A DNA stretch of 64,000 nt from Escherichia coli (GTDB taxonomy: Bacteria; Pseudomonadota; Gammaproteobacteria; Enterobacterales; Enterobacteriaceae), in NCBI RefSeq assembly GCF_003334335.1, contig NZ_QOWQ01000003.1, one strand, 5' to 3'. Position 1 is the stretch's first letter. Each line of letters opens with the position of its first letter. The translations under genes were made by a program, and so were the position numbers. Of the stretch, positions 58,321-58,338 are shown piece by piece. The notes beneath the pieces are model-generated. The model searched no databases and was not told the DNA's origin. It saw only the letters and a list, made by a program, of their open reading frames with translations.

Positions 58321-58338
58321 ATGGCAGTTTGATGACAG
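58321..58338 (-). promoter_or_regulatory. Pho box (PhoB binding site) upstream of yoaI
   Basis: Minus strand reads CTGTCATCAAACTGCCAT, two 7-bp direct repeats with a 4-bp spacer, one mismatch to CTGTCAT-N4-CTGTCAT; ends 50 bp upstream of the yoaI ATG. Confidence 0.6.

Follow-up and report, generated by a model that had tools for sequence, protein, structure and literature searches.

Background

Among the closest described relatives of the site reported here are the classical PhoB-activated promoters of phoA, phoB and pstS, in which direct repeats of the form (C)TGTCAT, separated by an A/T-rich spacer of 4 nt, take the place of a -35 element. The site upstream of yoaI has the same arrangement. 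Upstream regions of phoA, phoB, pstS, phoE, ugpB, phnC and phoH were drawn from K-12 for comparison. At phoA, phoB and pstS, whose true -10 elements we take to be TATAGT, CATAAT and TATTTT, respectively, the -10 hexamer starts 9 nt past the box when the latter is counted in its published 18-mer register.

Most PhoB sites in Escherichia coli, chiefly the intragenic ones, have been concluded to be without regulatory effect (Fitzgerald et al., PMC10294691). The gene yoaI is given as a direct PhoB target in O157:H7 by Yoshida 2012 (Gene 502:27) and Chekabab 2014, as these are cited in PMC10294691. In an O157:H7 microarray, Z2828 (YoaI) was one of the genes that responded to starvation for phosphate and to inactivation of phoB, with changes of 5.68- and 4.86-fold (Chekabab et al. 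2014, PMC3978041). The protein binds and activates the sensor kinase EnvZ through Glu31, while low Mg2+ raises its level post-transcriptionally and independently of the yoaI promoter (PMC11429745).

In this study, the DNA upstream of yoaI was analysed within a 64-kb (64,000-nt) stretch of an E. coli genome, hereafter the window. The site at positions 58321-58338 is almost certainly the single Pho box of a PhoB-activated, sigma70-dependent yoaI promoter. Both the PhoB site and its function at yoaI have already been published; the original prediction, made from the sequence of the window, was a real observation read correctly. What is added here is independent support from a phylogenetic footprint covering 32 species of enterobacteria, together with a comparison of promoter spacing and a predicted start site.

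Results and discussion

Layout of the yoaI promoter

The features on which the analysis rests are as follows, in window coordinates.

58166..58270, minus strand: yoaI coding sequence, 34 aa, single-pass small membrane protein (open reading frame; RefSeq b1788, 'small membrane protein YoaI')
58271..58298, minus strand: predicted 5' UTR, approximately 27 nt long, placed from the position of the -10 element
58277-58280, minus strand: Shine-Dalgarno-like GGGG, within a g.GG block conserved across species
58304..58310, minus strand: -10 element TAACAAT, the predicted hexamer being either TAACAA or AACAAT, 10-11 nt past the box
58321..58338, minus strand: Pho box, site of a PhoB dimer (sequence, matrix, published ChIP-seq motif and alignment)
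58332-58338, minus strand: repeat 1 of the Pho box, CTGTCAT
58328-58331, minus strand: spacer of the Pho box, CAAA
58321-58327, minus strand: repeat 2 of the Pho box, CTGCCAT
58440..58886, plus strand: yeaL, divergent neighbour encoding a DUF441 inner-membrane protein (open reading frame, annotation)

The original prediction had described a near-consensus Pho box in front of yoaI, and every detail that it gave agrees with the sequence. On the minus strand, 58338..58321 reads CTGTCATCAAACTGCCAT, that is, CTGTCAT-CAAA-CTGCCAT, with a single mismatch to CTGTCAT-N4-CTGTCAT, the fourth base of repeat 2 being C in place of T. Thirteen of the 14 repeat positions are therefore those of the consensus, and the 4-nt A-rich spacer gives the site its 11-bp periodicity. 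Between the box and the yoaI ATG at 58270 lie exactly 50 nt (58320-58271), and the AT-rich stretch TAACAAT, at 58310-58304 on the minus strand, begins 10 nt past the box. The absence of an obvious -35 element, likewise part of that description, was borne out by a sigma70 scan, in which the minus strand of this region gave no -35/-10 promoter; an activator-dependent promoter that lacks a -35 element would give just this outcome, and the empty scan was hence not counted against the promoter. A second, tandem Pho box of the kind present at pstS or ugpB was sought in the intergenic region and none was found, the next-best match there scoring 3.8 bits.

In the published 18-mer register, TAACAA starts 9 nt past the box and AACAAT 10 nt past it. 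Across species the -10 zone often takes the form of a 7-mer, TAnnnAT, examples being TAACAAT in the window and TATCAAT, TACTGAT, TATGAAT, TAAGGAT and TATTTAT in loci L015, L018, L041, L027 and L068 of the comparison, and its register is ambiguous from sequence, as either TAnnnA or AnnnAT could be the hexamer. From the position of the -10 element, we predict that yoaI transcription starts near 58297 +/- 2; the text of the yoaI paper mentions no mapped start site (PMC11429745). An Rfam scan of 54000-62000 (E <= 1) revealed no RNA element in the yoaI leader. The sole match in the scanned region, to JUMPstart within yeaL, was dismissed as chance, its 20.9 bits (E = 0.68) falling short of the gathering score of 35.

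Published binding and expression data

The window is E. coli K-12, differing from MG1655 by two mismatches in 6,001 nt and by nine in a further 23,301 nt upstream, with a constant offset, such that the K-12 coordinate equals the window coordinate plus 1,815,912. A PhoB ChIP-seq peak listed for yoaI/yeaL is centred at K-12 1874218, and TGTCATCAAACTGCCATT is the motif called for it (Fitzgerald et al. 2023, mBio, PMC10294691). This centre corresponds to window position 58306, 15 nt from the box, and the published motif is the same site as the 18-mer at 58321-58338, shifted by one base. Of the checks that had been proposed along with the box, PhoB ChIP is thus already answered by this peak (PMC10294691), while a reporter fusion compared under phosphate limitation with and without phoB is answered by PyoaI-YFP, which gave the predicted outcome: induction at low phosphate in the wild type and in a phoQ deletion, and none in a phoB deletion (Vellappan et al., PMC11429745).

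The RNA data point the same way. At low phosphate, yoaI RNA stood at 12,266 in the wild type versus 28 in the phoB deletion, a log2 fold change of 8.8 (q = 7e-210); occupancy of yoaI by the beta subunit of RNA polymerase was substantially higher in the wild type than in the phoB deletion, and sigma70 occupancy at the yoaI site was more than two-fold lower in the deletion (PMC10294691). Occupancy by PhoB, the dependence of RNA, RNA polymerase and sigma70 on PhoB, and a reporter responsive to both PhoB and phosphate are accordingly matters of published experiment, whereas the sequence, geometry and conservation of the box were observed here. The ChIP enrichment score at yoaI is 1, the lowest class (PMC10294691). 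This low score occurs together with an induction, approximately 440-fold, that is among the largest in the regulon.

These data also bear on an alternative in which PhoB binds the box without transcriptional consequence and the induction of yoaI is indirect, through another PhoB-dependent regulator. Such a reading would align yoaI with the majority of E. coli PhoB sites, mainly intragenic and devoid of regulatory effect (PMC10294691), and would accord with an enrichment score of just 1; moreover, in the accessible literature on yoaI and PhoB, we found no report of mutagenesis of the box or of an in-vitro PhoB footprint. The yoaI site is, however, intergenic and on the correct strand, 10-11 nt from a conserved -10 element as at phoA, phoB and pstS. 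Occupancy of yoaI by sigma70 and RNA polymerase falls when phoB is deleted (PMC10294691), the size of the effect falls within the range of core regulon promoters, and the position and strand of the box have been kept in 28 of 32 species amid drifting surroundings. An inert box is for these reasons very improbable, and direct activation of yoaI from the box is the reading that we retain.

In the mechanism that we favour, PhoR phosphorylates PhoB when phosphate is scarce, and a head-to-tail PhoB dimer then occupies the two direct repeats, where a -35 element would otherwise sit. The bound dimer recruits RNA polymerase, presumably via region 4 of sigma70, to the weak -10 element TAACAAT situated 10-11 nt downstream, with transcription predicted to start about 27 nt ahead of the ATG. 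The contact with sigma70 region 4 is proposed by analogy with pstS and phoA, where it belongs to the established knowledge of PhoB. YoaI, once in the inner membrane, is reported to stimulate EnvZ, which links PhoR-PhoB to EnvZ-OmpR.

Conservation of the box and its spacing

The 1.4-kb region around the box is matched in 5,412 of 5,426 complete E. coli genomes. For a wider comparison, yeaL loci were collected from the Enterobacteriaceae at one genome per species, giving 80 loci, of which 32 carry a divergent yoaI homologue upstream of yeaL. The pair occurs in Escherichia species, Salmonella, the Citrobacter amalonaticus/koseri group, Trabulsiella and Kosakonia, and also in Yokenella, Pluralibacter, Cedecea and some Enterobacter. 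In the C. freundii group, Klebsiella, Raoultella, Buttiauxella, Kluyvera and Leclercia, the 1.5 kb upstream of yeaL contained no yoaI.

The best intergenic match to a PhoB weight matrix lies on the yoaI sense strand in all 32 species, and in 28 of these its score is 12.6 bits or more and its start lies 61-78 nt ahead of the yoaI start codon. Weak boxes, of 8-10 bits, were seen in two Kosakonia species and in Cedecea sulfonylureivorans. The boxes vary and yet keep their half-sites, as illustrated by TGTCATGATGTTGTCATT in Yokenella, TGTCATTGTGCTGTCATG in Pluralibacter and CGTCATGAAATTGTCACC in Enterobacter sp. kpr-6.

An alignment that was not anchored on the matrix led to the same elements. When the 125 nt upstream of the gene were aligned with MAFFT (33 distinct sequences, from the window and the 32 species), the only conserved blocks were tGTCAT.a...tG.CAT, a tA..aataa block 10-11 nt later, the g.GG of the Shine-Dalgarno sequence, 6-9 nt ahead of the start codon, and the ATG itself. 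The half-sites and the -10 block have thus been kept across species amid drift in the spacer and flanks. When the sequences were stacked by their best matrix match, the mean information per column was 0.27 bits in the upstream flank, 1.58 in repeat 1, 0.76 in the spacer and 1.45 in repeat 2, the values for the box columns being inflated by this anchoring. It is 0.37 bits in the 10-nt gap and 0.96 in the -10 zone, and the latter value is not so inflated, since this zone lies outside the matrix used to find the box. The published conservation analysis (PMC10294691) agrees with the cross-species conservation of the site found here.

The same comparison addresses the suggestion that the box serves the divergent gene yeaL, as an activator or repressor site, instead of or besides yoaI. 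The box does lie in the 169-bp intergenic region shared by the two genes, and its ChIP-seq peak is listed as 'yoaI/yeaL'. Nevertheless, the direct repeats face yoaI, and a distance of 101 nt lies between the far end of the box and the ATG of yeaL. The length of the intergenic region ranges from 126 to 220 nt across species, whereas the distance from the box to the yoaI start remains at 61-78 nt (28 of 32 species). Finally, yeaL RNA, at 36 in the wild type versus 67 in the phoB deletion, shows no significant change (log2 fold change -0.9, q = 0.28; PMC10294691). We therefore give a role in yeaL expression very little credence, and take the box as a yoaI promoter element.

The mismatch in repeat 2 has a distribution of its own. 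TGCCAT, with the T-to-C change, is common to Escherichia, Salmonella and the Citrobacter amalonaticus/koseri group, while Enterobacter, Yokenella, Pluralibacter and Cedecea have the perfect repeat, TGTCAT. A sub-optimal half-site might have been retained here, giving the promoter a high threshold for PhoB~P; a ChIP score of 1 alongside an approximately 440-fold induction would fit such a threshold.

Chance level of the match

For the PhoB weight matrix, we took all ChIP-seq sites except that of yoaI, 58 in number, from Table 1 of Fitzgerald et al., and then scanned both strands of the window. At 15.95 bits the yoaI box is the best match of the window and ranks 18th of 59 among the real sites. 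It is also the sole match in the 64 kb with at most one mismatch to CTGTCAT-N4-CTGTCAT; with up to two mismatches there are three matches, versus 0.34 expected. A match scoring at least as high as the yoaI box was present in 35 of 200 Markov-simulated 64-kb windows (17%), so the sequence by itself makes the site a good candidate and is suggestive, no more. When the intergenic sequence ahead of yoaI was shuffled, only about one version in 500 attained the score of the box.

The chance background can be seen in the window itself. Its second-best matrix match, at 24527-24544 on the minus strand (15.25 bits), falls within ynjE and has no published ChIP peak. Two further candidates with two mismatches each, at 25997-26014 on the plus strand within ynjH and at 56172-56189 on the plus strand within dgcJ (12.7 bits over 56172-56190), are likewise intragenic and devoid of a ChIP peak, and were taken as chance. 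All three are examples of chance background. A PhoB ChIP-seq peak is also present elsewhere in the window, within yeaC (K-12 1861798, window about 45886), with a score of 5 and no motif called (PMC10294691). The sequence under this peak (TGTCAATTGTCAT) contains the half-site TGTCA twice, at a spacing of 7 nt rather than 11, and this spacing may explain why MEME called no Pho box there.

That the yoaI box is itself a functionless chance resemblance to the consensus, as the 17% of random windows with equally good matches and the unoccupied ynjE site might lead one to suppose, is already refuted by the published binding, RNA-seq and reporter data, and with the one-in-500 shuffle frequency and the cross-species footprint added, its likelihood is practically nil. 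Given the weak significance at the scale of the window, the case for the yoaI box rests on position, conservation and published experiments. A genuine regulon member was recoverable by reading raw sequence, for which the matrix score alone is insufficient.

The yoaI gene and its product

The YoaI protein encoded in the window is identical to b1788. The gene had been said to escape the open reading frame track through its small size and, indeed, its frame is listed only when the cutoff is lowered to 20 aa. At that cutoff, the frame is 50 aa long and GTG-started (58166..58318), as compared with the 34-aa, ATG-started gene of RefSeq. The longer version was rejected, as the extension overlaps the -10 element and the predicted start, and as the indels in the leader between species are not multiples of three.

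Residues S26, V27 and E31 are invariant in 57 YoaI orthologues (PMC11429745). In our set, the window protein carries the corresponding S-V-x-x-x-E, as do nearly all homologues of the 32 species. The exceptions are a pair of Kosakonia-type loci with C-V (L041, Kosakonia sacchari, and L044, a soil MAG), Dryocola with both L-V and D, and Cedecea sulfonylureivorans with D.

Neighbouring genes and the convergent yeaK

The local gene order is dgcJ, yeaK, yoaI (reverse), yeaL, nimR (reverse) and nimT. The 3' ends of the convergent genes yeaL (plus strand) and nimR (minus strand) overlap by 44 nt (58843-58886), as annotated in K-12. On the other side, yeaK (plus strand), the gene for a mischarged aminoacyl-tRNA deacylase, and yoaI (minus strand) are convergent within 57662-58270, their stop codons abutting at 58165 and 58166.

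PhoB-driven transcription of yoaI may have a putative role beyond the making of YoaI, although we consider this rather unlikely. The strongly induced transcript could read antisense into yeaK, a proposal that draws on four observations: the convergent layout; the lack of an intrinsic terminator past yoaI, for which the minus strand was both searched and folded as RNA (z = -0.12); the conservation of the tail-to-tail yoaI-yeaK arrangement in 29 of the 32 species; and yeaK RNA, which narrowly misses the authors' cutoff (q = 0.0115) and is approximately 1.7-fold lower with phoB intact than in the phoB deletion (PMC10294691). Many of the growth-related changes in that RNA-seq table are at least as large as this 1.7-fold difference. 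If the proposal were true, yeaK would be damped under phosphate starvation, by transcriptional interference or by antisense pairing.

Several clinical E. coli strains among the top-ranked BLAST matches (H1-H10) carry an IS1A element in the 3' end of yeaK. In E. coli 675SK2 (L082), the element occupies about 1200-1970 of the locus, corresponding to window position 58050 or thereabouts, some 100 nt downstream of the yoaI stop. The insertion alters the C-terminus of YeaK and leaves the yoaI promoter intact.

Comparison with known systems

The placement of a Pho box where a -35 element would be, in a PhoB-activated yoaI promoter, as originally proposed, is supported by ChIP-seq, RNA-seq, a reporter, the footprint and the spacing. 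Measured to its predicted -10 element, the spacing from the box at yoaI is that of phoA, phoB and pstS. Fold-induction is also comparable, at approximately 440-fold for yoaI, 200-fold for phoA and 770-fold for pstS. The yoaI promoter differs from these in several respects. It has a single box, whereas pstS has two (23.2 and 15.6 bits, 22 nt apart), the other, weaker matches at pstS being 11-nt-shifted overlaps of those two. Unlike the classical promoters, it bears the T-to-C change in repeat 2, and its ChIP enrichment score is far lower (1, versus 20 at phoA and 38 at pstS). The product differs as well, yoaI encoding a 34-aa signalling modulator and not a phosphate-scavenging enzyme or transporter.

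The yoaI Pho box is thus the transcriptional input that places the EnvZ-modulating protein YoaI under the control of phosphate starvation, and a node joining PhoR-PhoB with EnvZ-OmpR; this connection and its dependence on PhoB were already published. In this respect, the nearest relatives of YoaI are SafA, PmrD and MzrA, small-protein connectors between two-component systems (PMC11429745). The likeness is that a small protein under the control of one such system acts on the sensor kinase of another: YoaI, transcribed through PhoR-PhoB by way of the Pho box, acts on EnvZ (PMC11429745). It concerns the gene product, YoaI, and not the DNA site.
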